From an uncultured Chloroflexia bacterium (GTDB taxonomy: Bacteria > Chloroflexota > Limnocylindria > Limnocylindrales > CSP1-4), in assembly GCA_963774695.1 (NCBI GenBank), contig CAVZFY010000021.1, positions 148,786 to 212,785 on the forward strand: 64,000 nt of DNA, given 5' to 3'. Within the stretch, counting starts at the first letter, position 1; the number at the start of each line of letters is the position of its first letter. The notes under the pieces are model-generated. The model searched no databases and was not told the origin of the DNA. It saw only the letters and a list, made by a program, of their open reading frames with translations. The translations under genes and the position numbers were made by a program. This document shows, piece after piece, positions 36,362 through 54,088 of the stretch.

Positions 36362-36684
36362 ATGGGCGGCAAGTTGGCGATTGCGGCGGGCCTCGTCATG
36401 GGCGTCGCCGTTGGGGCGGGCGTCCTGGGCGGCGTCGTGCTGCTGGCACCCGGCGTGGACCCGCTGGCGACGCCGACGCCGGCACCCGCGGCGTCACCGT
36501 CGGCGCCGGCCTCGCCGTCCGCGTCGCCATCGACCGCCCCGTCCCCGTCCGCACCCTCGGCCACGCCGGGCACGTCCCCCGGCTCACCCGACCCGTCCGC
36601 CTCGGCTGGGGCCGCGTTGTCCGGGTGGGCCGTCCGGCCGGGCGAGCGGCCGCCGTTGGCGGGCTCGCGTCCCGCTTCGCCTAG
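36362..36684 (+). CDS. Small membrane-anchored Ser/Pro/Ala/Thr-rich protein; 3' end uncertain
   Basis: Hydrophobic N-terminus MGGKLAIAAGLVMGVAVGAGVLGGVVLLA followed by TPTPAPAASPSAPASPSASPST; TACGCT lies 8 nt before the ATG. Confidence 0.45.
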
Positions 36685-38163
36685 CCGCCGACCTGCCCGA
36701 CCGACGCGGCGGCCCGCGCGACGATGTCGAGCATCGTCGTCGGGAACAGCCCGAGCGCGATCGTCATGACGGTCGCCACGGCCAGGCCGGTCCAGACGAG
36801 GCGGCCGTGGCGGAGGCCCGCCTGCTCGGTCGTGGGCTCGCGCATGAACATGTAGACGACGACGCGCAGGTAGTAGAAGGCGGCGATGGCCGCGTTGAGG
36901 ACCGCGAGCACGGCGAGGACGTTGAGCCAGCCGCCCGCCTCGACGGCGGCCAGGATCACGTAGAACTTGCCGAAGAACCCGGCGGTGGGCGGGATCCCGG
37001 TCAGCGACAGCAGGAACAGGGTCATCAGCAGGGCGAGCGTCGGCTCCCGGCGGATCAGGCCCGAGAACGTCGACAGGTTGCTGGTCACGCCCTGGCGCTT
37101 CTGGATCGCGGCGATGACCGCGAACGCGCCGAGGTTCATGAACGCGTACGCCGCGCCGTAGTAGAGCAGGCCGGACATCCCGTCCTGCTCGCCCGCGCCG
37201 AAGGCGGCGAACCCGACCAGCATGTAGCCGGTGTGCGCGATCGACGAGTACGCCAGCATCCGCTTGACGTTGTCCTGGGCGAGCGCGACGAGGTTGCCGA
37301 GGGTCATCGTGAGCGCCGCCAGGATCATGATCACGGCGTTCCAGTCGGCCGCGAGCGGGCCCGAGCGCGTCGGCGAACAGCCGGATGATCAGCGCGAACG
37401 CCCCGATCTTCGGCCCGACCGACAGGTAGCCGGTCACCGGCGTCGGGGAGCCCTGGTACGCGTCGGGCGTCCAGTAGTGGAACGGCACCGCCGCGATCTT
37501 GAACGCGACGCCCGTGGTCATGAACGCGAGCCCGAGGCCGAGCGCCGGGGCGAGCGGCGCGCCGCCGCTGACGATGTTGGCGAGCGCTTCGGAGACGCCG
37601 GCGATCCGCGTGGTGCCGGTCATGCCCCACACGAACGCGAGCCCGAACAGCAGGATCGCGCTCGAGAACGAGCCGAGCAGGAAGTACTTGATCGCGCCCT
37701 CGGTCGAGTAGCCGTCCGACTTGTGGTAGCCGGCCATCACGTAGCCGGGCAGGACCATGAGCTCGAGGCCGAGGAACATCAGCAGCAGGTCCGCCGACCC
37801 GGCGATGAGCATCGCGCCCGACATCGCGAAGATCAGGACCGCGGCGAACTCCGCGACCGGCAGGTCCCGCTCCTCGAGGTAGTCCGGGGCGAACGCGATC
37901 GTCAGCGCGACGATCGAGATGAACAGGATGTCGAGGAAGGTCGTCAGCGCGTCGACGACGTAGGCGCCGTTGAACGCGAGCTTGGGCAGCGGGTCCTGGC
38001 CGACCAGCGCGGTCAGCAGCGCGACGATCCCGAGACCCAGGAAGGCGACGGCCAGCGCCGGGCCCTTGCGTCCCGGGAAGATGAAGTCGGTGATGAGGAT
38101 CGCCGCCGCGACGAGGATCGTCGCGATGAACGGCGAGAAGGCGACGAGGTCTTCGGTCGTCAT
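36681..38163 (-). CDS. nuoN: NADH-quinone oxidoreductase subunit N; frameshift near 37360
   Basis: MFLGLELMVLPGY; EGAIKYFLLGSFSS; FKIAAVPFHYWTPDAYQGSP; NVKRMLAYSSIAHTGY; GIPPTAGFFGKF. Confidence 0.95.
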
Positions 38164-39724
38164 CGCAGCCCTACCGCCACGGTCCGTAGGCGATGGGCGC
38201 CGCGTGCTGGACGGCCTGGAGCGTGCTAGTCCACGGAGCCGTTGATGATGCCGAGGACGAGCCCCGGGAACAGGCCGAGGATCACGACCAGCGCCCCGAG
38301 CGGGACCAGCGTCATCGCCTCGACGGGGCGCATGTCGGTCAGGTGGCTGCCGAGGCCGCTCGAGGAACTCGCTCAGCTCGCCGAACACCACCCGCTGGAA
38401 CATCCACAGCAGGTAGCCGGCCGCGAGGATCATCACGAACGTCGCGATCGCCGCGGCCGACGGGATCATCACGAACGTCCCGACGAGCGTCAGGAACTCG
38501 CCGACGAACCCGGACAGGCCCGGCAGGCCGACGGACGCGAACACGAAGAACCCGAACGCGGCGGCGTAGACCGGCGTCTTCGACGCCAGCCCGCCCATCT
38601 TCGCGATCGTCCGGTCGTGGGTCCGCTCGTAGATCACGCCGACGAGCAGGAACAGGCCGCCGGTGATCAGGCCGTGGTTGACCATCTGCAGGATCGCGCC
38701 CTGCAGCGCCTGCTGCTGGAACACGAAGATGCCGAGCGTGACGAAGCCCATGTGGCTGACCGACGAGTAGGCGACCAGCTTCTTGAGGTCGGGCTGCACG
38801 AGGGCGACGATCGCGCCGTAGATGATCGCGATCAGGCTGAGCACGATGATCGCCGGCGCCCACGTGTGGGCGGCGTCGGGGAACAGCGGCAGGGCGAAGC
38901 GGATGAACCCGTAGCCGCCGAGCTTGAGCAGGACGCCGGCCAGGATCACCGAGCCCGCCGTCGGCGCCTCGACGTGCGCGTCGGGCAGCCAGGTGTGGAA
39001 CGGGAACATCGGCACCTTGATCGCGAAGGCGAGGAAGAAGGCGCCGAACGCGAAGAACTGGAAGGTCGGGTTGAAGCCGCCGGTGCCGGCGAACGCCGTC
39101 AGCACCTGGACGTCGAAGGCGCCGGCCCACGTCTGCGTCGCCGCCTGGTAGGTGAACGCCGTCGCCAGGATCGCGACCAGCATCAGCAGCGAGCCGACGA
39201 GCGTGTACAGGACGAACTTGATCGTCGCGTAGATCCGGTTCGCGCCGCCCCAGATCCCGATGATCAGGTACATCGGGACGAGGACCAGCTCCCAGAAGAT
39301 GTAGAACAGGAACAGGTCCATCGCGACGAACACGCCGATCATGCCGACCTCGAGGATCAGGAAGGAGACCATGTACTCCTTGACCCGGTTCTGGATCGGC
39401 TTGAACGAGGCGAGGATGCTGATCCACGAGAGCGTGGTCGTCAGCACGACGAGGACGAGCGACAGGCCGTCGACGCCCACGTGGTACTGGATGCCGAACA
39501 GCGGGATCCAGTCGTAGACGTCCTGGAACTGGAAGCCGGCCGAGCCCGGTCGCGTAGGCGGCGAGCAGCCCGAGCGACACGACCCACGCGCCGAGGGCGA
39601 ACAGCAGCGCGACCCAGCGGACCGCGTTCGGTCGGCCCGAGGGCACGAGGGCCACGACGATCGCGCCCAGCAGCGGCAGGAACGTGACCAGCGTCACCGG
39701 GTGGATGTCGGCGAACCAGCTCAT
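38160..39724 (-). CDS. nuoM: NADH-quinone oxidoreductase subunit M; frameshifted
   Basis: GVDGLS; DLFLFYIFWELVLVPMY; IKVPMFPFHTWLPDAHVEAPT; LKKLVAYSSVSHMG; MVNHG; PGLSGFVGEF. Confidence 0.95.
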
Positions 39725-41797
39725 CGCGGCTGCGACACGATCACGAGGAACGACCCGGCCATGACGAGCAGGCCGATCGCGATGCCGAGGGCGTAGTTCT
39801 GGACGCGGCCCGTCTGGATCCGGCGCAGGCTGCCGCCGACGCCGCGCGTGGCGCCGCCGATGCCGTTCACGGTGCCGTCGATGACGACCCGGTCGAACCA
39901 CCACAGCGCCCGCGGCGACCCTGCCGCCGAGCACGATGAACAGCAGGTGGTTGAGGTCGTCGAACCACCACTTGTTGAGCGACGCGCGGTAGAGGAACTG
40001 CGTCCCGCGGTTGGCGGACGCGATGCGCTCGACCATCCGCGGATGGCCGCCGTTGCGGAAGACGCCGAACAGCCAGATGCCGAACACGAGGCCGGTGGTC
40101 GCCGCGGCGACGCTGATCAGGATCAGGGCGCCGTCGATGCCGGCGATCTGGAACGTCTCGTCGGTCTGGCCGAGGTAGGCGTTCGAGGCGGCGAAGACCG
40201 GCTCGAGCCACGTCGTCAGCAGGCCCGGCTGCACCGGCAGCCCGAACAGCGGCCCGAGCGGCGGCCCCGGCCAGGTGAGGATGATGCCGAGGAACAGCGA
40301 CGGGATCGCGAGCAGGATCAGCGGCACCGTCATCTGCCACGCCGACTCGTGGATCTTGGGCTCGACCGCCGGGTCGACGTGCGACGGGCCGTAGAACGTC
40401 TTGCCCATCAGGCGCCACATGTAGAACGCGGTCATCACGGCGACCGTCAGGCCGATCGCCCAGATCCAGTAGCTGCCGTTCTTGTAGGCGTCGGCGAGGA
40501 TCTCGTCCTTCGAGAAGAAGCCGGCCAGCGGCGGGATGCCGGCGATCGCGATCGCGCCGATCAGCATCGTCCAGTGGGTGATCGGGATCTTCCGCCACAG
40601 CGCGCCCATGCGGTTCATGTCCTGCTCCTCGTGGACCGCGTGGATCACCGATCCCGAGCCGAGGAACAGCAGGCCCTTGAAGAAGCCGTGGGTCATGAGG
40701 TGGAAGATCGCCGCGGTCCACGCGCCGACGCCGAGCGCGGCGAACATGTAGCCGAGCTGGGACAGCGTCGAGAACGCGAGCACGCGCTTGATGTCGGTCT
40801 GGGTGAACGCGATCGAGGCCGCGAGGATGGCCGTGAAGATGCCGATGGCCCCGACGACGACCATCGTCTCCTGGGCGTGCGCGAACAGGATGTTCGAGCG
40901 CGCGACGAGGTAGACGCCGGCGTTGACCATGGTCGCCGCGTGGATCAGGGCCGAGACCGGGGTCGGGCCCTCCATCGCGTCCGGCAGCCAGACGTGGAGC
41001 GGGAACTGGGCGCTCTTGCCCATGGCGCCCGCGAACACGAGCAGCGCGATGAGCCCGATCGGGATCGGCAGCTGGACACCGGGCGCCGTGAGCTTGGCCA
41101 GCGAGTCCTGGATGTTGAGCGTGCCCGTGCAGTAGAAGATCGCCATGATCCCGAGCGCGAACCCGACGTCGCCGACGCGGTTGACGATGAACGCCTTCTT
41201 GGCGGCGAGGGCCGCCGAGCGCTTCGAGTACCAGAAGCCGATCAGCGAGTAGCTCGACAGCCCGACCAGCTCCCAGCCGGCGAACACGAGCAGCCACGTG
41301 TTCGCGAGCACCAGCAGGAGCATCGAGAACATGAACAGGTTGAGGTAGGCGAAGAAGCGCCACGTCCCGTTGTCGTGGGCCATGTACCCGATCGAGTAGA
41401 TGTGCACGAGCATGCCGATCGTGGTCACGACGATCAGGAGGCAGGCCGTCAGCGCGTCGACGTGGAAGCCGATGTCGACGTTGAATCCGCCGGCCGGGAT
41501 CCAGTCCCAGAGCTTGATGTCCAGGCCTTCTTCACCGAACGGCGCGGCGTGCTGGAGGGCGGGCGCGATGATCGCGAGGGCGATCAGCCAGACGGCGATG
41601 ATGCCGACGACCGGGACGATCTCCGCGGCCCACCGGCCGAAGCGCAGCTGGAGCCGACGGCCGAACAGCGCGTTGAACGAGAAGCCGGCGATCGGGATCA
41701 GGAGGAGCAGCGGGATCAGCGTCGCGTAGATGCCGGGGTCGGCCGATCCCGCGGGATCGACGGCCGCGAACGCCGTGACGGGCAGGAGGTGGATCAC
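39721..41797 (-). CDS. nuoL: NADH-quinone oxidoreductase subunit L; frameshift near 39915
   Basis: RFFAYLNLF; GWELVGLSSY; FIVNRVGD; GKSAQFPLHVWLPDAMEGPTPVSALIHAATMV; DIKRVLAFSTLSQLG; HGFFKGLLFLGSG; AGFFSKD. Confidence 0.96.
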
Positions 41798-41799
41798 CG

Positions 41800-42132
41800 C
41801 TACTGCCGCATCGCGTCGTACTCGTCGACGAGCGGCGTCTTCTTGTTGCGGTAGATCGCGATCACGATCGCGAGGCCGATGGTCGCCTCGGCCGCCGCGG
41901 CGGCGATGACGACCAGCGCGATGACCGACGCGTTCGCCTGGAGCGACGTGGTGAACGCCCCGAACGCGATGATCGAGAGGTTGACGCCGTTGAGCATCAG
42001 CTCGATCGACATCAGCATGCTGATCGCGTTGCGCCGGGCGAGGAAGCCGAACGTGCCGATCGCGAACAGGATCCCCGACAGCACGAGGTAGGCGTCGAGG
42101 GACTGCGAGATGCCGTTGAGCGCGCTGAGCAT
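41800..42132 (-). CDS. nuoK: NADH-quinone oxidoreductase subunit K
   Basis: LFAIGTFG..RRNAISMLMSIELMLNGVNL...AAAEATIGLAIVIAIYR. Confidence 0.95.
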   Translation of the reverse strand: MLSALNGISQSLDAYLVLSGILFAIGTFGFLARRNAISMLMSIELMLNGVNLSIIAFGAFTTSLQANASVIALVVIAAAAAEATIGLAIVIAIYRNKKTPLVDEYDAMRQ

Positions 42133-42668
42133 CAGTCGACGCCCCCGTGCTCGCGCTTGGCGAGGAACACGCCGCCGATGACGGCCGCCAGCAGGAGCAC
42201 GCTGACGATCTCGAACGGGAGGACGAACGAGCCGAACAGCGTCTCGGCGACGGTCGTCGTGTCGGTCTGGTAGACGGTGCCGGTGATCGGCCAGGTGGTC
42301 GAGAGGACGCCGAGCGCGATGACGATCGCGAGCAGCACGCCGGCGACCGCCGCGGGCCCGGCCTGCGTCTGGAACACCAGGCGGCTGGGCGCGGCCTTCG
42401 TCTCGGTGAGCATGATCGCGAACAGCACGAGCACGCTGATCGCGCCGATGTAGACGAGGACCTGCGTCGCGGCGACGAGCGGGGCGGCGGCGATCACGTA
42501 GATCCCGGCGAGGGCCGCGAAGCACACGATCATCGCGAGGGCGCAGCGGATGATGTCGCGCATCGTCACGACCAGCAGCCCGGCGATCAGCATGATCGCG
42601 GCGAGCGTCATGAACAGGAGGTCGTCCCAGCCGATCCCGAGGAACGGGATGGTCTCAGGCAGCGTCAC
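42132..42668 (-). CDS. nuoJ: NADH-quinone oxidoreductase subunit J
   Basis: QVLVYIGAISVLVLFAIML; LPFEIVSVLLLAAVIGGVFL. Confidence 0.95.
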   Translation of the reverse strand: MTLPETIPFLGIGWDDLLFMTLAAIMLIAGLLVVTMRDIIRCALAMIVCFAALAGIYVIAAAPLVAATQVLVYIGAISVLVLFAIMLTETKAAPSRLVFQTQAGPAAVAGVLLAIVIALGVLSTTWPITGTVYQTDTTTVAETLFGSFVLPFEIVSVLLLAAVIGGVFLAKREHGGVD

Positions 42669-42677
42669 GTGTCGCTC

Positions 42678-45367
42678 TCAATGGTCGTGCGCGTGGCCCG
42701 TCGAGGCGGTCGCGGGCAGGGCCGCGGGCCCATGGCCGTTCCCGTTCGCGTGGCCGTGGCCATTGCCGTTGCCGTGCCCGTTCCCGCCGCCCGCGATCGA
42801 GGCCGGCAGCACCGGCAGCAGGCGCGCCGGGTCGAGGAACCGGCCCTCCGCGCGCGCCCGGTCGGCCCAGTCGCGCTCCTTGCGGATGTAGCTCATCTCC
42901 GTCTCGCGCTCGACCGCCGCCAGCGCGAGGAGGTCGATCATCGGCTCCTCGCGGGACGTGTGGCTGAGCTCGAACTGGTCGCTGTCGCGCACGGCGTCGT
43001 ACGGGCACGCGTCGACGCAGATGCCGCACAGGATGCAGCGGCTCTCGTCGACCTCGTACTTCTCGAGCACGCGCGGCTTGGGCATCAGCGCGCCGGTCGG
43101 GCACGTCTCGGCGCACCGGCCGCAGGACACGCACGGCGTGTCGTTGAGGCTCATGTCGAGCGGCGTCGTGACCAGGGTGTCGAACCCGATCCGCATGAAG
43201 TCGTAGCAGGCGGCGCCCACGACCTCGGCGCACACGTTGGCGCAGCGGCCGCAGTCGATGCAGCGCGACGGCTCGCGGAGGATGAACGCGTGGCTGTCGT
43301 CGCGGACGTAGTCGTGGTTGATGCCGGTGAACCGGTTCTCGGTCACGCTGCGGTAGCCGGCGCCCTGGTGGAACGCGGGCTCGAGCGTCTTGAGCGTCGT
43401 CCCGTACTCGATGCCGAGGCGGCGCAGGTCGCAGAACCCGATCGCCTCGCACGTGCACTGGAGGCAGCGCGTCGACTCGGCCATCGCGTCGGCCGGCGTG
43501 TACGGGATCTCGTACTCGATGTAGTTGCTGTTGCGGGCCTCGGCCTCGAGCGCCGTCATGCGGTAGCGCGGCTCCTTGATCTCGCCGGTGAACGGCACGA
43601 TCGAGAGGAACTCGGGCTGCGGCTCGGCGAGCGTCTGGCGGGCGCGGATCGTCGACGAGGTCGTTGCCCTTGAGGTAGGCGTCGACCGCGTAGGCGGCGC
43701 GCCGGCCCTCGGCGATCGCCTGGACCACGGTCGCCGCGCCGATCCGCACGTCGCCGGTGCCGAACACGCCGGGCCGCGCGGTCTCGAAGGTCACGGCGTC
43801 CGCGCCGAGGCGGCGCTGCTTGGTGGCGACCGGGCCCTCGGAGCCGGGCCGGATCCAGTCGAGCTCCGGGCCCTGGCCGATGGCCAGCAGCACGCGGTCG
43901 CACGGGATCGTGAACTCGGTGCCCGGCGCGGGCTCGGGGCGGCGGCGGCCGGAGGCGTCGGGCGCGCCCGGCTGCATCCGGATGAACTCGATGCCGGTGA
44001 GCTTGCCGGTCTTCTCGTCGGTGATGACGCGCGTCGGGCCCGCCTGGAAGATGGCGGTGACGCCCTCCTCGATGGCCTCGTGGACCTCGTTGCTCGCCGG
44101 CATGTCCTTCATGTCGCGGCGGTAGACGAGCGTGACCTCGCTGGCGCCCTGGCGGATCGACGTCCGCGAGCAGTCCATCGAGGTGAACCCGCCGCCGACG
44201 ACGACGACCCGGGAGCCCTCGTGGCCCGGGTACGGCAGGCCGAGCGTCGCGGTCCGCAGGTACTCGAGGCCGTCGATGACCCCGTCGGCGTCCTCGCCCG
44301 GGATCCCCAGCTTGTTGGTGTCGTAGCAGCCGATGGCGACGACGACGGCGTCGAAGCCCTGGTTCTGCAGGTCGTCGAGCGTGAAGTCGCGCCCGAGGCC
44401 CATGTTGCAGCGCATCTTGCCGCCGAGCCGGATCACCGACTCGTACTCGGCCTCGAGGACCTCGACCTTCGGCAGGCGGTACTGCGGGATGCCGTAGCGG
44501 AGCATGCCGCCGGGCGACGGGTCGCGCTCGAACACCGTCACGTCGTGGCCGGACAGCAGCAGGTAGTAGGCGGCGGCCATGCCGGCGGGCCCGGAGCCGA
44601 TGACCGCGGCGCGACGCCCGGACGCGGCCTGCTGCTCGAACGGCAGCGGCGGGTCGACGTCCTCGTCGAGCATCGCGCGGATGACCTGGTCGCCGGCGTA
44701 GCGGTGGCTGTCGCGGATCGCGATCGCCTCGTCCACCTCGTCGCGGCGGCAGTGCTCCTCGCACGGCGCCGGGCACACGCGGCCGAGCACGCTGGGGAAC
44801 GGGATCGTGCGCTTGAAGATCCGGGTGCGACTCGCGCCAGTTGGCCTCGGCGTTGGCCTTGAGGAAGCCCGGGATGTCGATGTGGCTCGGGCACTTGTTC
44901 TGGCACGGCGGCAGGCAGTACGCGTTGTGGTCCGAGAAGATCAGCTCGAGGTTCGTGCGGCGCAGGCGGCGGACCTCCTCGGTCTGCGTCTGGACCTTCA
45001 TCCCGTCCTCGCACGTCCGCGAGCACGAGATCGGCGGCGTGTCCTCGCCCTCGACCTCGACCACGCACATGCGGCAGGCGCCGAAGCCCGGCAGCTTGGG
45101 CTCGTAGCACAGGGTCGGGATCTCGATGCCGTTGTCGCGGCAGACCTCGAGGATCGTCTGGCCCTCGAGGCCCTCGACCACGCGCCCGTCGACCTCGATC
45201 CGGATCGCCGGCGTGCTCTGCGGCCGCTGCGGCGACTGGGTCGTGATCAGCCGCTCGGCGAGGCCGTCGTTCTGGGGCGTGACGGTGTCGAGGACCGCGG
45301 GGTTGTCGGGGCGCGACTGGACACGGCGCTCGGGCGGGCGTTCGGGGCGGATGATCAGGTCGGCCAT
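42678..45367 (-). CDS. NuoG-position fusion protein: 2Fe-2S, GltD-type FAD/NAD(P)H oxidoreductase, 4Fe-4S, 2x4Fe-4S, and the C-terminal half of NuoI; 2 frameshifts (~44810, ~43650)
   Basis: CYEPKL..FGACRMCVVEVEG..ISC; HNAYCLPPCQNKCP; GRVCPAPCEEHCRR; VIGSGPAG; GGMLRYGIP; VVGGGFTSMD..VYRR; GTGDV; RCLQCTCEAIGFC; CIDCGRCANVC; CVSCGRCAETCP; then KYEVDESRCILCGICVDACPYDAV..SDQFELS..REE. Confidence 0.9.
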
Positions 45368-45375
45368 GTCGCGTC

Positions 45376-46704
45376 CTAGCTCGCCGCGCCCGCCGCCACC
45401 GCGATCGGCTGACAGACGCCGGCGGGGCACGAGCTGCGCAGGATGTGGTCGTCGATCTCGGAGCGGAAGTATCGCATCCCGCTGGTGAACGCCAGGGTCG
45501 CCAGGCGCTCGTGGTCGCACAGGCCGCTGGCGGCGATGTCGTGCGCGAGGTCGCCCAGGAGGTCGGCGTCGGTGGGCTTCGGACGGCCGGTCGAGATCCG
45601 GTCGCCGATCTCGTACAGCCGCCGCAGCCCGATCCGGCAGGGGATCGTCTTGCCGCAGGCCTCGTCGGCGGAGAACTTGGTCAGCAGCCGGGCGAGGTCC
45701 ACGACGCACGCGCGGTCGTCGGCGAACACGACGGAGCCGGAGCCGATGTGGGCGCCGGCTTCGCGGAGCGGCCCGTAGGCGTACGGCATGTCGATCGCGT
45801 CGGCCGGCAGCAGCCCGCCGGTCGGCCCGCCGATCAGGATCGCCTTGAGCGCGCGGTCGCCGCGCCCGCCCGCGAGGTTGACCAGGGTCCGCAGCGGCGT
45901 CCCGAACGGCACCTCGGCGATGCCGCCGCCCGCGGGGCCGCGGAGCTGGACGAGCACCGTGCCCGGGCTGTCCTCGACGCCGGTCGCCGCGAACGCCGCG
46001 CCGCCCTGGCGGACGATCCACGGGACGGTGGCCAGCGTCTGGACGTTGTTGACGACGGTGGGCTTGCCGAACAGGCCCGTCTCGGTCGGATAGGGCGGCT
46101 TCTGCTCGGGCTGCCCGCGCTTGCCCTCGAGCGCCTTGAGCAGGACGGTCTCCTCGCCCAGCATGAACGCGCCCTGGACCGGCCGGATCGTGACCGTCAC
46201 CCGCTGGCCGCTGTTGAGCACGTTGTCCCCGAGGAAGCCGGCCTCCTCGGCGGCGAGCGCGGCGCCCTCGAGCTTCGTCACGAGCGCGGGGTCATCCGCC
46301 CGGACCGCGAGGATCGCCTCCGTGGCGCCGACGGCGAACGCGGCGATCGCGAGGCCCTCGAGCACGAGGTAGGGGTCCGCGGCGAGCAGCGCGGCGTCGG
46401 TGTGCGAGCCCGGGTCCGCGCCGTAGCCGTTGGCGACGACGTAGCGCTGGGTGGCCGACTGGGACGCGGCCGCGCGCCACTTCTCGCCGGTCGGGTAGCC
46501 CGCGCCGCCCCGGCCGCGCAGCCCGGAGGCGGCGATCGTGGCGATCGTCCCCGTCGCGCCGAGGTCGCGGACCGCGATCCGCAGCCCGTCGAAGGCGCCG
46601 GCCTTCACGGCGGCGTCGAGGTCGCCGGGATCCTTCTCGAGCGCGGCGACGCGTCCGGTGAGGATCGACGGGAAGTCCCGCTGGGTCGAGATGAACGCGC
46701 TCAT
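45376..46704 (-). CDS. nuoF: NuoF/HydB-like flavoprotein with divergent NADH/FMN and N3 motifs
   Basis: Intact 442 aa ORF: SGLRGRGGAGYPTGEKW; NGYGADPG; GEETVL; PPYP; NNVQT; GGPTGG; EACGKTIPCRIG; GLCD; HI..SSCPAGVC. Confidence 0.9.
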   Translation of the reverse strand: MSAFISTQRDFPSILTGRVAALEKDPGDLDAAVKAGAFDGLRIAVRDLGATGTIATIAASGLRGRGGAGYPTGEKWRAAASQSATQRYVVANGYGADPGSHTDAALLAADPYLVLEGLAIAAFAVGATEAILAVRADDPALVTKLEGAALAAEEAGFLGDNVLNSGQRVTVTIRPVQGAFMLGEETVLLKALEGKRGQPEQKPPYPTETGLFGKPTVVNNVQTLATVPWIVRQGGAAFAATGVEDSPGTVLVQLRGPAGGGIAEVPFGTPLRTLVNLAGGRGDRALKAILIGGPTGGLLPADAIDMPYAYGPLREAGAHIGSGSVVFADDRACVVDLARLLTKFSADEACGKTIPCRIGLRRLYEIGDRISTGRPKPTDADLLGDLAHDIAASGLCDHERLATLAFTSGMRYFRSEIDDHILRSSCPAGVCQPIAVAAGAAS

Positions 46705-47386
46705 GCGCCGCCCGCCGCGCCGGCGCCCCGGTCGCGCCGCCGAAGCCGAGCGACGCCTCCAGCGCCGACCGGTAGTCCGACTCGATCGCCCGGTGCGCCT
46801 CGCCCGCGGGCGCCCCGGCGTCGATCGTCGGTGGCTCGAAGCGCAGGTGGCGGTAGTAGGTCGCGGTCCCGTAGATCATCGCGTACCAGGTGCCGGTGAT
46901 CCGCGAGATGTGCTTGAGCGCGCCGACCGGCAGGTAGCCGTACTCGGCCTGCGTCTCCTCGAGGATGGCCAGCAGGTCCTTGGGGTCGTAGTCGTGGCGC
47001 TCGAGGATCTCGTCGAGGGCGGCCGTGTCGACGGGGTCGAACCGCGCGTAGGCCGCGTCCGGCACGGTCCGGCCGGACCGGCGCAGCGCCGACTCCTCGC
47101 GCCGCTCGCCGAAGGTCTCGGCGGGGCCCCAGTGGACGTGGAAGCGGCCCTTGGTGTCCATGCCGCCCATGTCGATGCACTCGATCGGGCAGGCCTGCGC
47201 GCACTGGAAGCACGTCTCGCACTTGAGCGTGCCCCACTCGTCGTACAGCAGCTGGAGCCGGCCGCGGAACTTGGGCGGGACGTCGGCCGGCTGCTCGGGC
47301 CAGTGGACGGTCGCCTTGGGGGCGAAGAACCGGCGCAGGGTGAACCCCATGCCCCGGACCATGCCCATGCCCGGCACGGTGCTCAC
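46701..47386 (-). CDS. Fusion of the N-terminal half of NuoI (one CxxCxxCxxxCP) and the N-terminal helical domain of NuoE (no 2Fe-2S domain)
   Basis: GMGFTLRRFF..KATVHWPEQ...KFRGRLQL.YDE.G.LKCETCFQCAQACPIECI, then LDEILERH...LLAILEETQAEYGYLP...IYGTATYY, all in one frame. GTGA overlap with nuoH and ATGA overlap with nuoF (stop reached via a late frameshift). Confidence 0.88.
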
Positions 47387-48726
47387 AGGTGCAGCGTCCC
47401 GGCCACGGCGGCCCCGGCGATCACGACCGCGGCGGCGGTCAGGAACAGGTTGAGCAGGGACGCGGGCAGCAGCCACTTCCAGGCGAAGTTCATCAGCTGG
47501 TCGAGGCGCACGCGCGGGAGCGTGCCGCGCATCCACACGAAGATGAACACGAAGATGAACGCCTTGAGCAGGAACCACAGCAGGCCGGCGACCCAGTCGA
47601 GCCCGAGGTAGGTCACGCCGAAGATCGCGCCGACCGCGACCACGTTGAACGTGATGAACCCGAGCACGAGCGCCTGCCACGCGGGCCGGTCGCTGCGGAT
47701 CAGGTAGAACGGCGCCGCGAGCAGCAGCGTGATCACGAGCGGCGCGGTCGCGAGGATGATCAGCAGCCCGTTGCCCAGCGAGCCCGGGTCGAGGCCCAGC
47801 ACGACGTGCGGGAAGTCGAACGGCGCGTTCCAGGCCCCGAAGTACAGGGTCGTCATGAGCGCCGAGATGATGAACACGTTCACGTACTCGGCGAAGAACA
47901 GGAACCCGAACCGCATGCCCGAGTACTCGGTGGCGAACCCGGCCACGATCTCCGAGTCGGCCTCGGTCAGGTCGAACGGCGTCCGGTTGGCCTCCGCGGT
48001 GGCGGCGATGAAGAAGATCAGCGCGCCCAGCGGCTGGCGGAACACGAACCAGTCGGTGAACCAGCCGGACTGCTGCTGGCCGATCTGGTAGACGCTCATC
48101 GTCCCGGCGAGGAGGATCAGGCCGACGACCGAGAGCGTGAGCGGGATCTCGTAGCTCACGACCTGGGCCGCGGACCGCAGCCCGCCGAGCAGCGAGTACT
48201 TGTTGAAGCTCGACCAGCCGGCCATCAGCAGGCCGACGACGGTCATGCCGCCGATCGCGAACAGGTACAGCAGGCCGATGTTCAGGTCGGCACCGACGAG
48301 CCCGGGCCCGAACGGGATGACGAGGAACGTCATCACCGCCGTCAGGAACACGATGACGGGCGCCCAGGTGAACACGATGCTGTCGGCGCCGGTCGGGGTG
48401 AAGTCCTCCTTCATGAGGACCTTGAGCCCGTGGACCACCGACAGGAGGGAGCCGGCCGGCCCGACCCGGTCCGGGCCGACGCGAAGGTTCATCAGCGCGA
48501 TGACCTTCATCTCCATGTAGATGATGATGAAGGCGGCCGGGATGCTGAACAGCAGGATCGCCGTGACGGCGACGAGGAACCGGACGATCTCGATGTTGGC
48601 GCTGAGGATCGCGATCAGCCACGGCGCCACGAGGTTGGCGAACAGGATCGTCACGATCGGCCCGACCACGAGGACCAGGATCAGCAGCGGCAGCAGGATC
48701 CGCCCGGTCAGCGTCAGGCTGCTCAT
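47383..48726 (-). CDS. nuoH: NADH-quinone oxidoreductase subunit H (extended, ~447 aa)
   Basis: EMKVIA.MNLRVGPDRVGP; GLKVLMKED; YSLLGGLRSAAQVVSYE; AEANRTPFDLTEADSE; GFATEYSG; WMRGTLPRVRLDQLM. Confidence 0.95.
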   Translation of the reverse strand: MSSLTLTGRILLPLLILVLVVGPIVTILFANLVAPWLIAILSANIEIVRFLVAVTAILLFSIPAAFIIIYMEMKVIALMNLRVGPDRVGPAGSLLSVVHGLKVLMKEDFTPTGADSIVFTWAPVIVFLTAVMTFLVIPFGPGLVGADLNIGLLYLFAIGGMTVVGLLMAGWSSFNKYSLLGGLRSAAQVVSYEIPLTLSVVGLILLAGTMSVYQIGQQQSGWFTDWFVFRQPLGALIFFIAATAEANRTPFDLTEADSEIVAGFATEYSGMRFGFLFFAEYVNVFIISALMTTLYFGAWNAPFDFPHVVLGLDPGSLGNGLLIILATAPLVITLLLAAPFYLIRSDRPAWQALVLGFITFNVVAVGAIFGVTYLGLDWVAGLLWFLLKAFIFVFIFVWMRGTLPRVRLDQLMNFAWKWLLPASLLNLFLTAAAVVIAGAAVAGTLHL

Positions 48727-48743
48727 CGACCGTCGAACGGCGG

Positions 48744-49987
48744 TCACTTGTCGACTCCGCCCATGATCGGGTCGAGCGAGGCCATGACGGCCATGGTGTC
48801 CGCGATCAGGTTGTCCTTCATCATCATCCCCACCAGCTGGAGATGGACGAAGGACGGGTCGTGGATCTTCATCCGGAACGGCTGGTCGGTGCCGTCCGAG
48901 ATCGCGTAGGTCCCGTACAGCCCGCGCGGCCCCTCGATCCCCGCCCAGGCGCGGCCGGGCCGCGGCCGCAGCAGGCGCGGCAGCTTCGCCATCACCGGCC
49001 CGTCGGGCATGTTGTGCAGGCACTGGTCGATGATCCGGAGGCTCTGCTTGACCTCCTCGACGCGCAGCAGGTAGCGGTCCAGCGCGTCGCCGCCGGCCGG
49101 CCCGTGGCCGCGCGTCGGGACGTCGAACTCGATCTCGGGGTAGACGCGAGTACGGGATGCGCCCGGCGGATGTCGAACGGCATGCCCGTCGCCCGCAGGT
49201 TCGGGCCCGTCACGGCCATCCGCATCGCGGTCGCGTTGTCGAGCCGGCCGATGTCGCGCATCCGGCGGACGAAGATCTCGTTCTCGTTGAGCAGCTTGGT
49301 GTTCGCGTCGTGCTGGTTGGCCGCGCGGCTCATCCAGTCGCCGAGGCGGGACATGAACTCGTGGTTCAGGTCGCCGTTGACGCCGCCGATCCGGAAGTAG
49401 TTGAACAGCATCTTCTGGCCGGTGATCGAGGCCAGCAGGTCGCAGATCTCGTCGCGCTCGATGAAGCTGTACAGGATCGGGGTCAGGCCGCCGAGGTCGA
49501 GCGCCATCCAGCCCATGAACAGGGCGTGGCTCGCGATCCGGTTGAGCTCGCCGGTGAGCACCCGGATGTACTCGGCGCGCCGCGGCACCTCGACGTCGAG
49601 CAGCTTCTCGAACGCCATCACCGGCGACCACTCGCAGAACAGCGAGCTCACGTACTCGAGCGGGTCGACCTGGCTGATGACCTGGTGGTAGTCCGCGTTC
49701 TCGCACAGCTTCTCGACGCCGCGGTGGAGGTAGCCGAGGACGGGGTCGAGGTCGACGACGCGCTCGCCGCTGATCTTGAGCACGACGCGCAGCACCCCGT
49801 GGGTCGACGGGTGCTGGGGGCCCATGTTGAGGAACATCTCGCCGTCGCCGAGCGTGTAGAACTCGGCCTCGCGCTCGGTGCGCGGCGGGTACGGCGGGAC
49901 GGGCTCGAAGTGCCCGATCTGGTCGTCGAGCATCACCCGCGGGTCGTCCGCGGACGCGTGCTGGTGGGGCGCGGCGGGGGCGGTCAT
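48744..49987 (-). CDS. nuoD: NADH-quinone oxidoreductase subunit D; frameshift near 49150
   Basis: LNMGPQHPSTHGVLR; GYLHRGVEKL; DPLEYVSS; ELNRIASH; IEGPRG; DTMAVMASLDPIMGGVDK. Confidence 0.96.
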
Positions 49988-49989
49988 CG

Positions 49990-50540
49990 TCAGGCCTTCA
50001 CCGTGCGCCGGACCGTGGACGGGGTCGCCTGCGCCGGCACGTGCGTCTGCTCCATGTGGCGGACGCCGCCACCGGGCGAGCGCGACGGCGTCGTCGGCCA
50101 GGTAGAAGTCCTTGCGCAGCGGGAAGCTCGTGTAGTCGGGCGGCATGTAGATGCGCCGCAGGTCGCGGTTGCCCTCGAAGATGATCCCGAACATGTCGTA
50201 GGCCTCGCGCTCCATCCACTCCGCGCCGGGCCACAGGCCGGTGATCGAGGGGACGCGCGGGTCGTCGCGGGGCATGCCGTCCGCGACCACCCGCAGCCAG
50301 TCCGGGGACTGCGCGGACCAGAGGTGGTAGACGACCTGCATGTGGTCGCCGGTGTCGACGCCGGCGAGGTCGGCGAGGATCTCGAAGCCGAGCTGCGGGT
50401 CGTCGTGGACCACGCGCATGACGTCGACCAGGTCCGCCGGTGCCGATCCGGATCTCGGTCTGGTCGTGGCGCTGGCGGAGCGGCCCCGTGAACCGGTCTC
50501 CGAGCTTGGACTCGAGCCGGGCGCGCAGCTGGCGGTCCAT
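49990..50540 (-). CDS. nuoC: NADH-quinone oxidoreductase subunit C; frameshift near 50440
   Basis: LAGVD; VVYHL; VPSIT.LWPGAEWMEREAYDMFGI.FEGN.DLRRI; FPLRKDF. Confidence 0.94.
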
Positions 50541-50542
50541 GG

Positions 50543-51295
50543 CTAGATGTCCTGCGGCACGGTCGGCCCGATCGGGCGCTCGTGCCACTCCCCGCGCCGG
50601 TCCTTGACCAGCTGCTGGAGCTTCATCATCCCGTAGATCAGGCCCTCGGGACGGGGCGGGCAGCCCGGGACGTAGACGTCGACCGGCATGACGCGGTCGA
50701 TGCCCTCGATCGTCGAGTAGCTGCGCTTGTACCGCCCGCCCGAGCACGTGCAGTCGCCCATCGCGACGCACCACTTGGGCTCCGGCATCTGCTCCCAGAG
50801 GCGGACGAGCGGCCCCGCCATCTTCGTCGTCAGCGTGCCCGCGACGATCAGGACGTCGGCCTGGCGCGGGCTGGCGCGGAACGGGAACATGCCCCAGCGG
50901 TCCATGTCGTTCTTCGACGTCGCCGCCGACATCATCTCGATGGCGCAGCAGGCGAGGCCCGAGAGCAGCGGCCACAGGCTGTTCATCCGGATCAGGTCGA
51001 GCACGAGGTCGGCCTTGGTCGGGATGACCTCGAGCGCGCCCCAGCGCGCGTCGTCGCGGCGCACGAGGTCCGAGTGCTCGAGCCGCGTCAGGTGCGTGTG
51101 CTCGGTTCCCTCCTCGCCGCCGTAGGCGTCGGGCCGGATCGACCCCCAGAGCGTGTTGGGGACGACGATCGGCTGGGCGAGGTCATGGGGGTTGGCCGTG
51201 ACCAGGCCGCTCGCCGCGGCGCCGGCGTCGTCGGCGGGCGCCACGGCACCCGCCGCACCGCCGGCCGGGACGGGATCCTCGCGCGTCAGCGCCAT
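50543..51295 (-). CDS. nuoB: NADH-quinone oxidoreductase subunit B (with N-terminal extension)
   Basis: LWPLLSGLACCAIEMM; RASPRQADVLIVAGT; QMPEPKW; GDCTCSGG; VYVPGCPPRPE. Confidence 0.96.
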   Translation of the reverse strand: MALTREDPVPAGGAAGAVAPADDAGAAASGLVTANPHDLAQPIVVPNTLWGSIRPDAYGGEEGTEHTHLTRLEHSDLVRRDDARWGALEVIPTKADLVLDLIRMNSLWPLLSGLACCAIEMMSAATSKNDMDRWGMFPFRASPRQADVLIVAGTLTTKMAGPLVRLWEQMPEPKWCVAMGDCTCSGGRYKRSYSTIEGIDRVMPVDVYVPGCPPRPEGLIYGMMKLQQLVKDRRGEWHERPIGPTVPQDI

Positions 51296-51652
51296 GTCAG
51301 GACGCCCTTGCGCCAGGCGTAGGCGAGGCCGAGCAGGAGGATGCCGACGAACACGAGCATGCTCAGGAACAGCAGGCCCTGGTTCGAGGTTCGGATCGCG
51401 GAACACCACCGCCCACAGGTAGATGAACACGATCTCGATGTCGAACGCCACGAACAGCAGCGCGTAGATGTAGAACGAGATCCCGAACCGGGCGTGGGTG
51501 TCGCCGTACGTGTCGATGCCCGACTCGTAGGGATATCCCTTGTGCTCGTCGCCCTTCGTGCGATGCGAGATCGCCCAGGCGAGTCCGATCGTCAGGAAGA
51601 CGAACGTCACGCCGGCGAAGGCGAACCCGACGACGTACCAGAGTTCGGTCAC
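51286..51652 (-). CDS. nuoA: NADH-quinone oxidoreductase subunit A; frameshift near 51375
   Basis: PYESG; FYIYALLFVAFDIEIVFIYLWA; the shifted frame ends LAYAWRKGVLTWR*. Confidence 0.93.
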
Positions 51653-51753
51653 GTGGTCCTCGGTGTCGGGCGGGCCGTGTACGCAGACGGGCCGCGCTCG
51701 AGGGTGATGACACTGGGCGTGTCCGTGCGGCACACGAGCAGCACGGCTCTCGC

Positions 51754-51807: not shown

Positions 51808-53010
51808 CTAGCGATCGATGCGGCGGAGGGCGGGGAGCGCGGCGTCCGGCGGCATCCCGCGACCGAAGACGAGCACGCGGAACCCGCCCATGCCGCGTGG
51901 GTCGAGGAGCCGCTGGAGCGCCGAGCGCAGGAGCAGCGCGTCCTCGATCGTCGCGCCGGGCCGGCTCAGCCACGCCGAGGCGAGGTCCCCCGATGCCGCC
52001 AGCAGCTCCGCCTGTGTCGTCTCGCCCACCGGGTCGAGGCCGGCGCGGGCCGCGGCGGCGCGGACGGCCGCGAGGTCGACGGTCGCGGTCAGGTCCTGGC
52101 GGCCGACGTGGCGGAGCGCGTCGCCGCCGACCGCGTGGCGCGCGAACGCCCGCAGCGTGCCGTCCGGTCGCGCGATCGAGTGGAGGGCCGCAGGCTCGTC
52201 GGCGTAGTCCACGAGCACCACCGGCCCGCGGGCGAGGTGGGCCGTCGTCGCGGCCAGCCAGCCGTCGACGGCGAGGCAGACCTCCGTGACCTGGCCGTCG
52301 GCGAGCTCGACGCCCTCGGCCTCGAGGCGCGCCGCCAGCTCGGGCGTGCTCGGCTCGGCCTCGACCCAGGCGAAGCGGTCGCCGTCGACGCCGACGAAGC
52401 GCTCGCGGAGGCCGTCCGGCCGCCCGACGACGCGGTGGACCGGCAGCGCGTCGAGGACCTCGTTCGCGACGACGGCGCCCGTCTCGATCGCGTCACCTCG
52501 GCGGCGTGTCGTCGACGAGGTGACCCGCCAGGCCGTCGGTCGCGAGGCGGTCCCGGAGCGCGGCGATGCGCGCTTCCTCGCGTTCCACCGGGCGGTAGCG
52601 GATCGCGGGGAGGAGCGGCGAGCCCGCGTCCCGCAGCCCGCCGAGCAGGCCGGCGGCGAGGGCGCCCGTTCCGGCGCCGGCCTCGGTGACGATGAACGGG
52701 TCCGGACGGTCCATCGCCGTCCCAGGCCTGCTCGAGCAACCGCCCGATCGCGGTGCCGAAGATCGGGTGCAGCTCCGGGGCCGTGACGAAGTCGCCCGCG
52801 AACCCCGGACCCGCGGTCGGGCCGGCGGTAGTAGCCGTGGCCCGGCTCGTACAGCGCGCGCTCCATGAACCGGGCGAACGTGATCGGACCCTCGGCCGCG
52901 ATCTCGGCGCGGAGGCGCTCGACGAGCTCGGCGTCCTCACCGACCGCCTCGGGGTCCGGATGGGGATCGCGGACCAGGCCGGGGATCGCGTCGCTGCCGC
53001 CGCCGGTCAT
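51808..53010 (-). CDS. NDUFAF7/MidA-family SAM-dependent methyltransferase; frameshifted
   Basis: GPITFARFMERALYEPGHGYY; GDFVTAPELHPIFG; EAGAGTG; ANEVLDALPVH; LVDY; DLTATVD; F.VLV. Confidence 0.88.
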   Translation of the reverse strand: MTGGGSDAIPGLVRDPHPDPEAVGEDAELVERLRAEIAAEGPITFARFMERALYEPGHGYYRRPDRGSGVRGRLRHGPGAAPDLRHRDRAVARAGLGRRWTVRTRSSSPRPAPERAPSPPACSAGCGTRARRSSPRSATARWNARKRASPRSGTASRPTAWRVTSSTTRRRGDAIETGAVVANEVLDALPVHRVVGRPDGLRERFVGVDGDRFAWVEAEPSTPELAARLEAEGVELADGQVTEVCLAVDGWLAATTAHLARGPVVLVDYADEPAALHSIARPDGTLRAFARHAVGGDALRHVGRQDLTATVDLAAVRAAAARAGLDPVGETTQAELLAASGDLASAWLSRPGATIEDALLLRSALQRLLDPRGMGGFRVLVFGRGMPPDAALPALRRIDR

Positions 53011-54088
53011 CGCCGCGCCCGCAGCGCGAAGCGCACGCCCGGCCCGACCAGGCTGTGGCCGCCGAGGAGGATCGGGACGTCGGCGCCCGCGGCCGACGCC
53101 GTCAGGTCGCGCAGCCACGGGTCGCGGACGCGATCGGCGAGGAGCAGGTCGCTCGCGAACCGGTCCTCCGGCGGCGGCCATCCCCGCTCGTCGGCGCCCA
53201 GGCGATGGGCGAGGAGCACGCGGGTGTCGATGAGGGCGCCGTCCGCGAGGCGCGCGACGTGGCGGCCGAGCGATCCCGGCCCGTCGCGGTCGAGCAGCTC
53301 GCCGAGCACGCTGCGGGGCGGCCGGCGGTTCGGGCGCCCGAGCGCCGTCCCGATGGCGGCGGTCCGCAGGCCCCGCTCCTCGACCAGCGCCCGCGTCCGC
53401 GACCGGGTGTGCGTCTCGAGCCAGCGGAGGTCGGCGGCGGACGTGCGGCCGGCGACGAGCAGCTCCATGCCCGGGTCGGCGCGCCAGTGCCCGGATCGCG
53501 CGGAGCCGCTCGCGGACGGGCTCGGCATCGGCATCGGCAGGCCCCGGGAGTCGGGGGGCGCCGGCGACGCCGTCGAGCAGCAGCAGGTCCAGCGGCGAGT
53601 CGAGGTCCATCGCCAGCCGGCGCCGCGTGCGCAGGTCGCGAACCGGCACGCCGGCGACCTCCGCGAGCCAGCGCGGCAGCGCGTTGTCGGAGGCCAGGTC
53701 CGGCAGGTCGCGCAGGGCCTGCGTCGCGCAGGCGATCGCCAGGACGTCGGCCGAGGCCCGGTGGTTGGCGAGCGCGCCCGGCTCCCCGGCCGCCGCGGCC
53801 AGCACGAACGCCGCCCGATCGGCGGCCGTCGCCAGCGGGATGGAGCCCGCCCCCAGCACGACCAGGCCGTCGGGACGGAGCTCCGAGACCAGCCGGCGGA
53901 GACGCGACCCGAACGGCGTCTCGTCCGGCGGCTCGCGTCGGACGACCACACGCGCGGCGCCGGCGGCGAGGAACCCCGTCCGGTGGACCTCGGCCAGCGC
54001 GGTCCTGGCGCGCGTCGAGCGCGCGTTCGAGCGGGCCCGCGTCGGGGGCGAGCTCGGGGGCGAGGACGAGGACCGTGACCGCGGGCAT
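53007..54088 (-). CDS. Conserved hypothetical protein (possible GT-A/CofC-like N-terminal domain); frameshifted
   Basis: Coding-like sequence with PFG.RL, GAGSIPL, NHRASAD, DNALPRWL, DLDSPLD, EERGLR, IDTRVLLAH, EDRFASD, LGGHSLVG. The fold assignment is from recall only. Confidence 0.6.

Follow-up and report, generated by a model that had tools for sequence, protein, structure and literature searches.

The NADH module of complex I is generally regarded as a single acquisition, and few alternative electron inputs are known, namely FpoF, ferredoxin/NdhS, the flavodoxin-linked form of Campylobacter, and the predicted Nuo-Bfu. The Bfu family is defined by an invariant BfuBC core with flavin mononucleotide (FMN) and six Fe-S clusters, of which BfuB contains five and BfuC the sixth (Schut 2022, PMC9304861). 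Coupling requires the bifurcation core B1-FMN-C1 together with clusters B2-B5, with B1-FMN-C1 as the minimal site (PMC9304861, PMC11829005). In one type of large subunit, for which NsoC and StnC were named, the motifs HxxxCxxxCxxxCP and “CxxCxCxxxxC” (as printed) are regarded as scars left where GltD was inserted in a protein resembling NuoG (Kremp 2020, PMC7483475), and recombinant StnC binds flavin adenine dinucleotide (FAD) and oxidizes NADPH (PMC7483475). In NfnABC of Caldicellulosiruptor saccharolyticus electrons follow the path FAD-A7-A6-A3-A2-A1-[B1-FMN-C1]-B3-B4, with A2-A4-A5 as a dead-end branch in the Fdh-like domain, and Lys170 ligates cluster A7 in the soluble NfnA (PMC11829005). 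Here we describe a locus in which a cassette of this type is predicted to sit inside the nuoI gene of a respiratory complex I operon. It lies in a stretch of 64,000 nucleotides, called the window in the following, from an uncultured Chloroflexia bacterium (GTDB lineage Chloroflexota; Limnocylindria; Limnocylindrales; CSP1-4; assembly GCA_963774695.1, contig CAVZFY010000021.1, positions 148,786 to 212,785 of the forward strand). The gene that had been flagged in a preliminary description of this DNA, and its two upstream neighbors, are referred to as A', F', and C', respectively.

Operon architecture and the split NuoI

The genes on the minus strand of the window are arranged in the order nuoA-B-C-D-H, C' [I(N)+E'; 221–228 amino acids (aa)], F', A' [NfnA'+I(C)], and nuoJ-K-L-M-N (Table 1). 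An identical order with Pfam calls was found in a relative (L001), on a contig of 2.98 Mb, where a separate nuoI is not present. Pfam matches to the core subunits NuoA, B, C, D, H, J, K, L, M, and N were obtained for both L001 and the window, and the translated NuoB contains the ligands of cluster N2 (...LACCAIEMM...GDCTCSGG...PGCPP). NuoI occurs as two halves, and no single polypeptide carries both of its CxxCxxCxxxCP motifs. The C' protein matches positions 1–65 of the 121 positions of the NuoI profile (TIGR01971), after which NuoE is represented solely by its N-terminal helical region (positions 2–65 of 148; NCBIfam). The last ~120 residues of the A' ortholog in L001 match NuoI positions 71–116 as the top family (E 2.6e-12), and the same positions were recovered in the window’s own genome (E 4.7e-11). 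When compared by BLASTP to the canonical NuoI present in one genome of the class, the two halves align to residues 9–96 (38% identity, E 1e-14) and 58–133 (37%, E 9e-14). The split point is the loop between the two CxxCxxCxxxCP motifs, and all eight Cys of both motifs are kept in every sequence examined. A second NuoI was not found in the window’s genome, which contains a single NuoD.

As judged from these gene sequences, a whole nfnC-nfnB-nfnA-like cassette sits inside nuoI, between nuoH and nuoJ. The preliminary description had assumed a NuoG swapped in its usual place, which does not agree with this arrangement. Its proposed link to the proton-pumping arm turned out to be stronger than claimed, as A' ends in the C-terminal half of NuoI and the N-terminal half is fused to a NuoE-like protein. 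The NuoE-like gene is fused with the 5' half of nuoI, and the NfnA-like gene ends in the 3' half, which replaces the Fdh-like domain at the A5 column. Because the NuoI halves lie on two proteins, the cysteines of N6a and N6b, the two [4Fe-4S] clusters of NuoI, would come from two polypeptides, and such clusters formed in trans would staple the input module to the Q-module.

The same three genes might instead encode a separate soluble enzyme that merely lies within the nuo operon, with NuoI-like ends that are ordinary ferredoxin motifs. A Pfam Fer4_7 match at residues 746–792 of A' could indeed pair the third motif with the preceding CVSCGRCAETCP as a dicluster domain. However, no other nuoI was found in the window’s genome or in 60 of 61 genomes of the class (see below), the flanks are NuoI-specific (N-terminal GMxxTLRxxF..YPE and C-terminal DxFEL), and four clusters need four CxxCxxCxxxC motifs, of which the preceding one already serves A2/A4 in NfnA. 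These observations make a separate enzyme most improbable, and the pairing of the third ferredoxin motif in cis with its predecessor was rejected on the same grounds.

A' itself is most similar to subunits of the NfnA/StnC type, consistent with the kinship to Nso/NfnABC (Bfu) enzymes that had been suggested for its combination of 2Fe-2S, GltD, and Fe-S parts (PMC7483475). The closest solved chains are 9bov_A, the NfnA of Caldicellulosiruptor NfnABC (E 1.9e-162; query residues 47–778 against chain residues 4–699), 8oh5_C (StnC of Sporomusa StnABC), and 9n5u_A (NfnA of Thermococcus sibiricus). Identity to known NfnA/StnC/NsoC large subunits is 38–44%, and the top NCBIfam model is PRK12814 (residues 46–705). 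After read-through, Pfam assigned Fer2_4 (residues 54–129), Fer4_20 (151–228), Pyr_redox_2 (253–554), and Fer4 (771–793), with a weak match to Fer4_Nqo3 (696–761) below the cut-off. All motifs listed in the preliminary description (2Fe-2S, two GltD-type Fe-S motifs, GSGPAG, GGGFTSMD, VYRR, and further Fe-S motifs) were located in the corrected translation. Both Cys motifs of the GltD insertion are present, with CLQCTCEAIGFC as the CxxCxCxxxxxC motif. The 2Fe-2S N-terminus, the GltD/NfnL-like domain between both Cys motifs, and the following 2x[4Fe-4S] domain of NfnA/StnC-type BfuA were all found. The Fdh/NuoG-like C-terminal domain with cluster A5 and the Lys on A7 are missing, and the second NuoI motif begins at the alignment column of the A5 motif of soluble NfnA, which is the start of the Fdh-like domain. 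A molybdopterin-like NuoG body had also been reported as missing, in agreement with the lack of any Pfam match to Molybdopterin or Molydop_binding on the read-through A'. The NuoG model TIGR01973 covers only positions 1–101 and 116–202, with 100 bits against a cut-off of 470. At the level of domains the match to the GltD model TIGR01318 is strong (305 bits, below its cut-off of 483), and the neighborhood is a nuo operon and not gltB; the domain thus appears to have a GltD fold without being a glutamate synthase. An AlphaFold2 model, built on a 24-sequence alignment with a mean predicted local distance difference test (pLDDT) score of 56.7, has a GltD body with pLDDT 80–92 that matches NfnA, GltD, and the NfnI-L chain 5jca_L (template modeling score 0.76). 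On this homology A' is better named NfnA/StnC-like than a NuoG with GltD, with half of NuoI, the C-terminal one, in place of the Fdh-like tail.

Table 1 Features of the split-NuoI operon (positions are those of the window)
Feature	Position	Strand	Remarks
A' gene	42678..45367	minus	ATG at 45367, stop 42680-42678; ~895 aa after skipping two extra bases; NfnA/StnC-type subunit (2Fe-2S, GltD-type FAD/NADPH domain, Fe-S clusters A7, A6, A3, A2, A4) + NuoI C-terminal half
2Fe-2S Cys of A'	45109-45023	minus	motif in corrected translation
HNAYCLPPCQNKCP of A'	44929-44888	minus	motif in corrected translation
GRVCPAPCEEHC of A'	44784-44749	minus	motif in corrected translation
IRDSHRY of A'	44698..44718	minus	His where soluble NfnA has cluster A7 Lys ligand
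FAD Rossmann GSGPAG (VIGSGPAGMAAAYY) of A'	44563..44604	minus	Pfam + motif
NADPH Rossmann GGGFTSMD (VVVGGGFTSMDCSRTS) of A'	44205-44158	minus	motif; whole site 44113..44205
VYRR (in LVYRRD) of A'	44130-44113	minus	after GGGFTSMD
CLQCTCEAIGFC of A'	43466-43431	minus	motif in corrected translation
CIDCGRCANVC of A'	43262-43230	minus	motif in corrected translation
CVSCGRCAETCP of A'	43133-43098	minus	motif in corrected translation
NuoI C-terminal half in A'	42936..43073	minus	second CxxCxxCxxxCP = CILCGICVDACP at 43037-43002, then DQFELSH
F' gene	45376..46704	minus	NuoF/NfnB-like, 442 aa; Pfam Complex1_51K + NADH_4Fe-4S
C' gene	46701..47386	minus	NuoI N-terminal half (47353-47156, CETCFQCAQACP) + NuoE N-terminal helical domain (47014-46832)
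nuoA, nuoB, nuoC, nuoD, nuoH	47383..51700	minus	upstream part; A, C, D each frame-broken
nuoJ, nuoK, nuoL, nuoM, nuoN	36681..42668	minus	downstream part; L, M, N frame-broken

Three further observations concern other parts of the operon. Directly upstream of nuoA and on the same strand lies a PF02636 (Methyltransf_28) gene (window 51811-53020, minus strand, frame-broken; 1795-3003 in L001). This family includes NDUFAF7/MidA, an assembly factor of mitochondrial complex I by which the NuoD homolog is methylated. NuoH (47383-48750, minus strand) is long, with about 450 aa, and the 298-position Pfam model is spread across 377 of its residues. NuoB (50546-51298, minus strand) is extended at its N-terminus by about 100 residues.

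Reading frames, conservation and distribution

The window has a G+C content of 72% and shows single-base frame breaks roughly every 1.5 kb of coding sequence; its genes have to be frame-corrected before they are interpreted. A' as sequenced occupies three frames, and comparison with the nearest intact ortholog (L003; 89% nucleotide identity) places one extra base each at the two junctions, at about 44827 and about 43652. When both bases are skipped, an uninterrupted protein of 895 aa without internal stops is obtained, in which the residues at the junctions (NWRESTRIFKRT and DLVAIRARQTLAEPQPEF) are very similar to those found in relatives. About ten more frame breaks affect nuoA, C, D, L, M, and N and the 3' tail of the upstream C' gene, which probably carries a further indel. 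A search for A' orthologs in 5.8 billion proteins gave thousands of matches, of which the best 120 were full-length orthologs of 861–929 aa with 82–93% identity; those among the 120 that had a named source came from Chloroflexota or Candidatus Limnocylindrales. The ratio of nonsynonymous to synonymous substitution rates (dN/dS) relative to L003 was 0.16–0.25 for the three module genes A', F', and C', indicating purifying selection. The estimated completeness of the window’s genome is 72%, compared to 82–99%, mostly at least 90%, in its relatives. Because relatives have intact orthologs of 875–930 aa, unrelated genes are broken alike, completeness is only 72%, and dN/dS is low, both breaks in A' are very probably assembly indels and not biology. 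Programmed frameshifting at A' was rejected, as the break sites show no conservation, the gene forms a single open frame in relatives, and unrelated genes of the window are equally broken. Two breaks in A' and about ten across the operon would also be expected of a decaying pseudogene with real frameshifts. We consider such decay hardly credible in view of the low dN/dS and the lack of in-frame stops once the two bases are skipped. Moreover, the gene would belong to the genome’s only complex I, and indels scattered over unrelated genes, together with low completeness, are typical of an unpolished long-read assembly.

In alignments of Limnocylindria large subunits, the Cys of A1, A7/A6, A3, A2/A4, and the NuoI motif are all invariant, and so is the FAD motif. 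Across the four families examined, which span more than 1 substitution per site, the NADPH motif GGGFT..DC..TS...VYRR does not vary, in line with the NADPH-type Rossmann fold and YRR residues noted earlier; both are also kept in soluble NfnA representatives. At the A7 ligand position, H213 is invariant in the alignment of Limnocylindria and Thermoleophilia (alignment A1). The C-terminal tail of A' (42729-42785, minus strand) is rich in Gly, Asn, and His (GNGHGNGNGHGHANGNGHG...HAHDH). It differs in length among genera of the family labeled f1 and is not present in families f4, f3, and f2.

The distribution of the split NuoI was assessed by a NuoI-profile search of 61 Limnocylindria genomes, taken evenly from 26 genera and 5 families. 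The split was recorded in all 61; both NuoI halves were detected in 60 of them (the remaining genome, G058, shows the C-terminal half only), and wherever the halves share a contig they lie on the same strand, 4.1–4.8 kb apart. A whole NuoI besides the split form was found in one genome only (G022). The second operon of G022 is a canonical 14-subunit nuoA-N (G022:C21:80500-100400, L112), located about 18 kb from the split-NuoI operon, with a full NuoE, a NuoF with NADESEPG/ESCGKCVPC, and a NuoG with a molybdopterin domain.

A distant homolog of the large subunit (P0257, locus L014; 43% identity) belongs to an operon of a Thermoleophilia (Actinomycetota) metagenome-assembled genome (MAG). This operon comprises nuoABCDH, NuoI-N fused to a complete NuoE/BfuC, a complete BfuB, an NfnA-like protein fused to NuoI-C, and nuoJ onward, and the form was recovered at 76 loci of named MAGs. 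Its BfuC has all four 2Fe-2S cysteines, and its BfuB of 638 aa has N- and C-terminal cluster domains, so that the six-cluster core of the Bfu family is complete by sequence in this sister form and incomplete in Limnocylindria. Counting only rows that show either GGGFTAMD...LYRR or GDGFAA, most Thermoleophilia loci keep GGGFTAMD...LYRR. In a subset (L014, L036, L039, L074, and L083) the NADPH Rossmann is degenerate (VGDGFAA, no YRR) and the full BfuBC core is kept, the opposite of the loss pattern in Limnocylindria; in P0257 the GxPDxSGRRRP loop is deleted as well.

In a maximum likelihood tree, the integrated large subunits formed one clade (Shimodaira-Hasegawa-like approximate likelihood ratio test support 100) apart from 14 soluble NfnA representatives, and within this clade Thermoleophilia (100) and Limnocylindria (88) were each monophyletic. 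The single clade and the His at the A7 Lys position, which is common to both lineages, point to a NuoI-NfnA fusion that arose once. Other proteins considered as relatives were discarded: P0249 (1214 aa), a candidate NuoI-tailed form, is an ordinary soluble NfnA with an Fdh-like domain, and P0251 and P0273 (844–853 aa) are NfnA fragments ending at contig ends.

Partner subunits, proposed function and electron path

The NuoE- and NuoF-like partners that accompany the large subunit in soluble enzymes are both present, as had been anticipated, but they are stripped of their bifurcation cofactors. The nearest solved chains to F' are HydB and NfnB. None of the Limnocylindria F' proteins aligned has the N-terminal (B5) or C-terminal (B3/B4) cluster domain, and the sites of B2-B5 in F' and of C1 in C' are missing in all families examined. 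C' of the window lacks a 2Fe-2S domain, and the second Cys pair of the NuoE-like part is missing in every sequence examined. A remnant of its thioredoxin-like domain persists in families f4 and f2 and in some f1 genera, and the domain is deleted in the window’s lineage and in f3.

The middle Cys of the B1 (N3) site of F' is replaced by Thr, Ser, or Ala in f1, f2, and f4 (CGKTIPC in the window) and kept in f3 and in one f1 genus. Among the loci compared (L016-L035 and L116-L135), its loss coincides in 29 of 29 cases with a Glu three residues past the fourth Cys, where the sequences that keep the Cys (f3 and L035) have Gly; this pattern, which reflects only two or three independent changes, hints at a B1 cluster ligated by three Cys and a Glu. 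At locus L029 (G053:C15), from the window’s genus, F' continues into the NfnA-like gene in the same open frame without an intervening stop (...AAGAAHRDIAEMADLITRP...), which is either a real fusion or a sequencing error.

From the anatomy, homology, conservation, and distribution of these genes we infer cofactor occupancy, electron path, substrate preference, and pumping of the complex. Its most likely function, in which our confidence is slightly better than even, would be that of a non-bifurcating, proton-pumping NADPH:quinone oxidoreductase, probably with menaquinone as the quinone partner. We rank this function first in view of the strict conservation of the NADPH site, the loss of the ferredoxin branch, and the erosion of the NADH/FMN loop. 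An Nfn/Stn-type module would thus have become the electron-input module of the organism’s only respiratory complex I, with electrons passing along NADPH -> FAD -> A7 -> A6 -> A3 -> A2 (-> A4) -> N6a/N6b -> N2 -> quinone. The NuoI half of A' begins about 20 residues past the A2/A4 dicluster domain. Because it replaces the Fdh-like domain, the former A2-A4 side branch would be the obvious exit to N6a/N6b, N2, and quinone; the other possible exit would be from A3, like N5 in canonical complex I. F' would serve above all as scaffold or side relay; it might also provide a second entry point, for NADH.

Several observations weigh against this interpretation. The copy of A' in the window is frame-broken as it stands, and residues 624–828 of its AlphaFold2 model (the Fe-S and NuoI part) have pLDDT values below 30, so that the model provides no cluster geometry or in-trans NuoI fold. 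F' retains a B1 site of three Cys (possibly plus Glu) or four Cys, with a dN/dS of 0.20. Because the GRGGAG loop, GEET, and the B1 site are kept under purifying selection, F' may still bind FMN and oxidize NADH. Furthermore, a homolog of the type II NADH dehydrogenase (NDH-2) was found in only 26 of 41 class genomes and is missing from the other 15, near-complete ones included; in the latter, NADH must enter the split complex I directly or via PntAB.

These points bear on a dual-input NAD(P)H dehydrogenase, in which the FMN of F' would oxidize NADH (FMN-B1-A1-A2...) and the GltD domain would be a second entry for NADPH; slow transhydrogenation between NADPH and NADH through the shared cluster chain could also occur in such an enzyme. 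Besides the B1 site, the dN/dS of F', and the lack of NDH-2 in 15 genomes, it would explain why F' retains the GRGGAG(F/Y)P loop, Lys, GEET, and LEGxRGxP..PP.P and why the 2Fe-2S cluster A1, the link between B1 and A2, is conserved in full. However, the (A/G)DE of the FMN/NADH loop, invariant elsewhere, is changed to GYG, LMG, AYD, or GYE in Limnocylindria F' (NGYGADPG in the window). Families also differ in the Tyr that precedes GEE, in the asparagines of NNVET, and in aromatic residues presumed to stack on the adenine. Within the class F' diverges faster than A' (38–78% compared to 46–88% identity), the reverse of the trend between NuoF and NuoG in canonical complex I. In addition, PntB is nearly universal, being present in 40 of the 41 genomes; the exception, a single case, is G022 (91% complete), which also carries the canonical complex I. 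We therefore regard dual input as rather unlikely, though with an appreciable chance of being correct.

As the sole complex I of hosts that we presume to be aerobic heterotrophs, the enzyme is improbable as a machine that runs in reverse or by coupling mainly to make NADPH, be it by quinol reducing NADP+ at the expense of the proton motive force (pmf) or by quinone reduction driving electrons from NADH to NADP+. The loss of the bifurcation core B1-FMN-C1 and B2-B5 and the supply of NADPH by PntAB in 40 of the 41 genomes also argue against such a role. In its favor, one cluster chain joins two nucleotide-type sites, and complex I is, as a matter of general knowledge, reversible in principle. 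The parent Nfn/Stn enzymes also run in both directions (PMC7483475).

The pattern of PntB and NDH-2 fits a route NADH -> PntAB -> NADPH -> complex I into the favored NADPH:quinone oxidoreductase. A more reducing NADPH pool would give a larger driving force with low-potential menaquinone, which echoes an argument made for Nuo-Bfu (PMC9304861). The window’s genome itself encodes a type II NADH dehydrogenase (G000:C22; L115 3884-5275). It also has, beside fdhD, a soluble FdsGBA-like NuoE/NuoF/FdhA set (G000:C29; L114 6129-10032) with canonical NADESEPG and CxxCxxC motifs, which is probably an NAD-linked formate dehydrogenase. Taken as a whole, and only tentatively, we propose a natural NADPH pump in which N6a and N6b are each ligated by two polypeptides and the split ferredoxin subunit is the staple by which the module docks. 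Working in series with PntAB, one proton would lift the electrons of NADH to the NADPH pool and thereby give driving force to a low-potential, probably menaquinone-linked pump, and in the Thermoleophilia form the complete bifurcating core would couple the pmf to NADPH, NADH, ferredoxin, and quinone within a single machine.

Comparison with known complex I inputs and Nfn-type enzymes

A published account of a split NuoI or of an Nfn-type module in complex I was not found in the open-access full-text literature. The design would represent a second, independent way to plug an input module into the pump, by insertion of a transhydrogenase-type operon in the NuoI loop. It is fixed in two abundant, largely uncultured lineages of soil and freshwater, Limnocylindria and Thermoleophilia, and is the sole complex I of the 61 sampled Limnocylindria except G022. 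If NADPH is oxidized, assumptions in metabolic models would change as to which nucleotide feeds respiration and as to the H+/e- yield with the probable menaquinone, and the enzyme would offer a natural template for NADPH-coupled bioenergetics. The cores form a natural series, complete and bifurcating at one end and stripped at the other, that could serve to find out which cofactors are needed for Bfu bifurcation.

With canonical 14-subunit complex I the Limnocylindria complex shares eleven core subunits and the sequence of an FMN-subunit/2Fe-2S/4Fe-4S scaffold followed by NuoI, NuoB, and quinone. It differs in having no molybdopterin-like NuoG body, an inserted GltD, NuoI in two halves, and an altered gene order compared to A..N; the canonical operon of G022 provides the contrast within the class. 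Engineered E. coli complex I, in which NuoF Glu183 variants reportedly accept NADPH, embodies the same concept of an NADPH:quinone pump, but by a laboratory point mutation at the FMN site and not, as proposed here, by a separate FAD/NADPH domain.

In Mbx-like operons of Thermotoga and proteobacteria, a GltD-related flavoprotein was said to replace NuoI in a complex that reduces NAD(P)+ (Degli Esposti 2015, PMC4758237). These operons (Mbx/Mrp-type) likewise place a GltD-type NAD(P)H flavoprotein beside a complex-I-like membrane module, whereas the operon described here is of the true Nuo type, keeps NuoI in split form, and has an NfnA-type flavoprotein with NuoE/F-like partners. The predicted Nuo-Bfu of Geobacter, Deferribacteres, Planctomycetes, and Nitrospirae also combines a Bfu-type input with a proton-pumping complex I (Schut et al. 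2022, PMC9304861). Its genes keep to the usual nuoA-N order, its BfuA is of the NuoG type and has no GltD/NADPH domain, and its NuoI is intact; confurcation of NADH and ferredoxin was proposed for it. The Thermoleophilia form is nearer to this idea, yet it is Nfn-type and lies inside a split NuoI.

The closest likeness is to NfnABC/StnABC (C. saccharolyticus 9BOV, S. ovata 8OH5, T. sibiricus 9N5U) and to NsoABC of Thermococcus litoralis. They have the same three-gene set of NuoE-like, NuoF-like, and large subunits, the last with the same order of parts (2Fe-2S, HxxxCxxxCxxxCP, GltD body with FAD and NADPH sites, CxxCxCxxxxxC, and 2x[4Fe-4S]). These known enzymes are soluble, have an Fdh-like domain with A5, a full NfnB (B1-B5) and NfnC (C1), and a Lys on A7, and bifurcate to ferredoxin. 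In contrast, in the Limnocylindria complex half of NuoI replaces the Fdh-like domain, His stands at the A7 position, and B2-B5 and C1 are lost.

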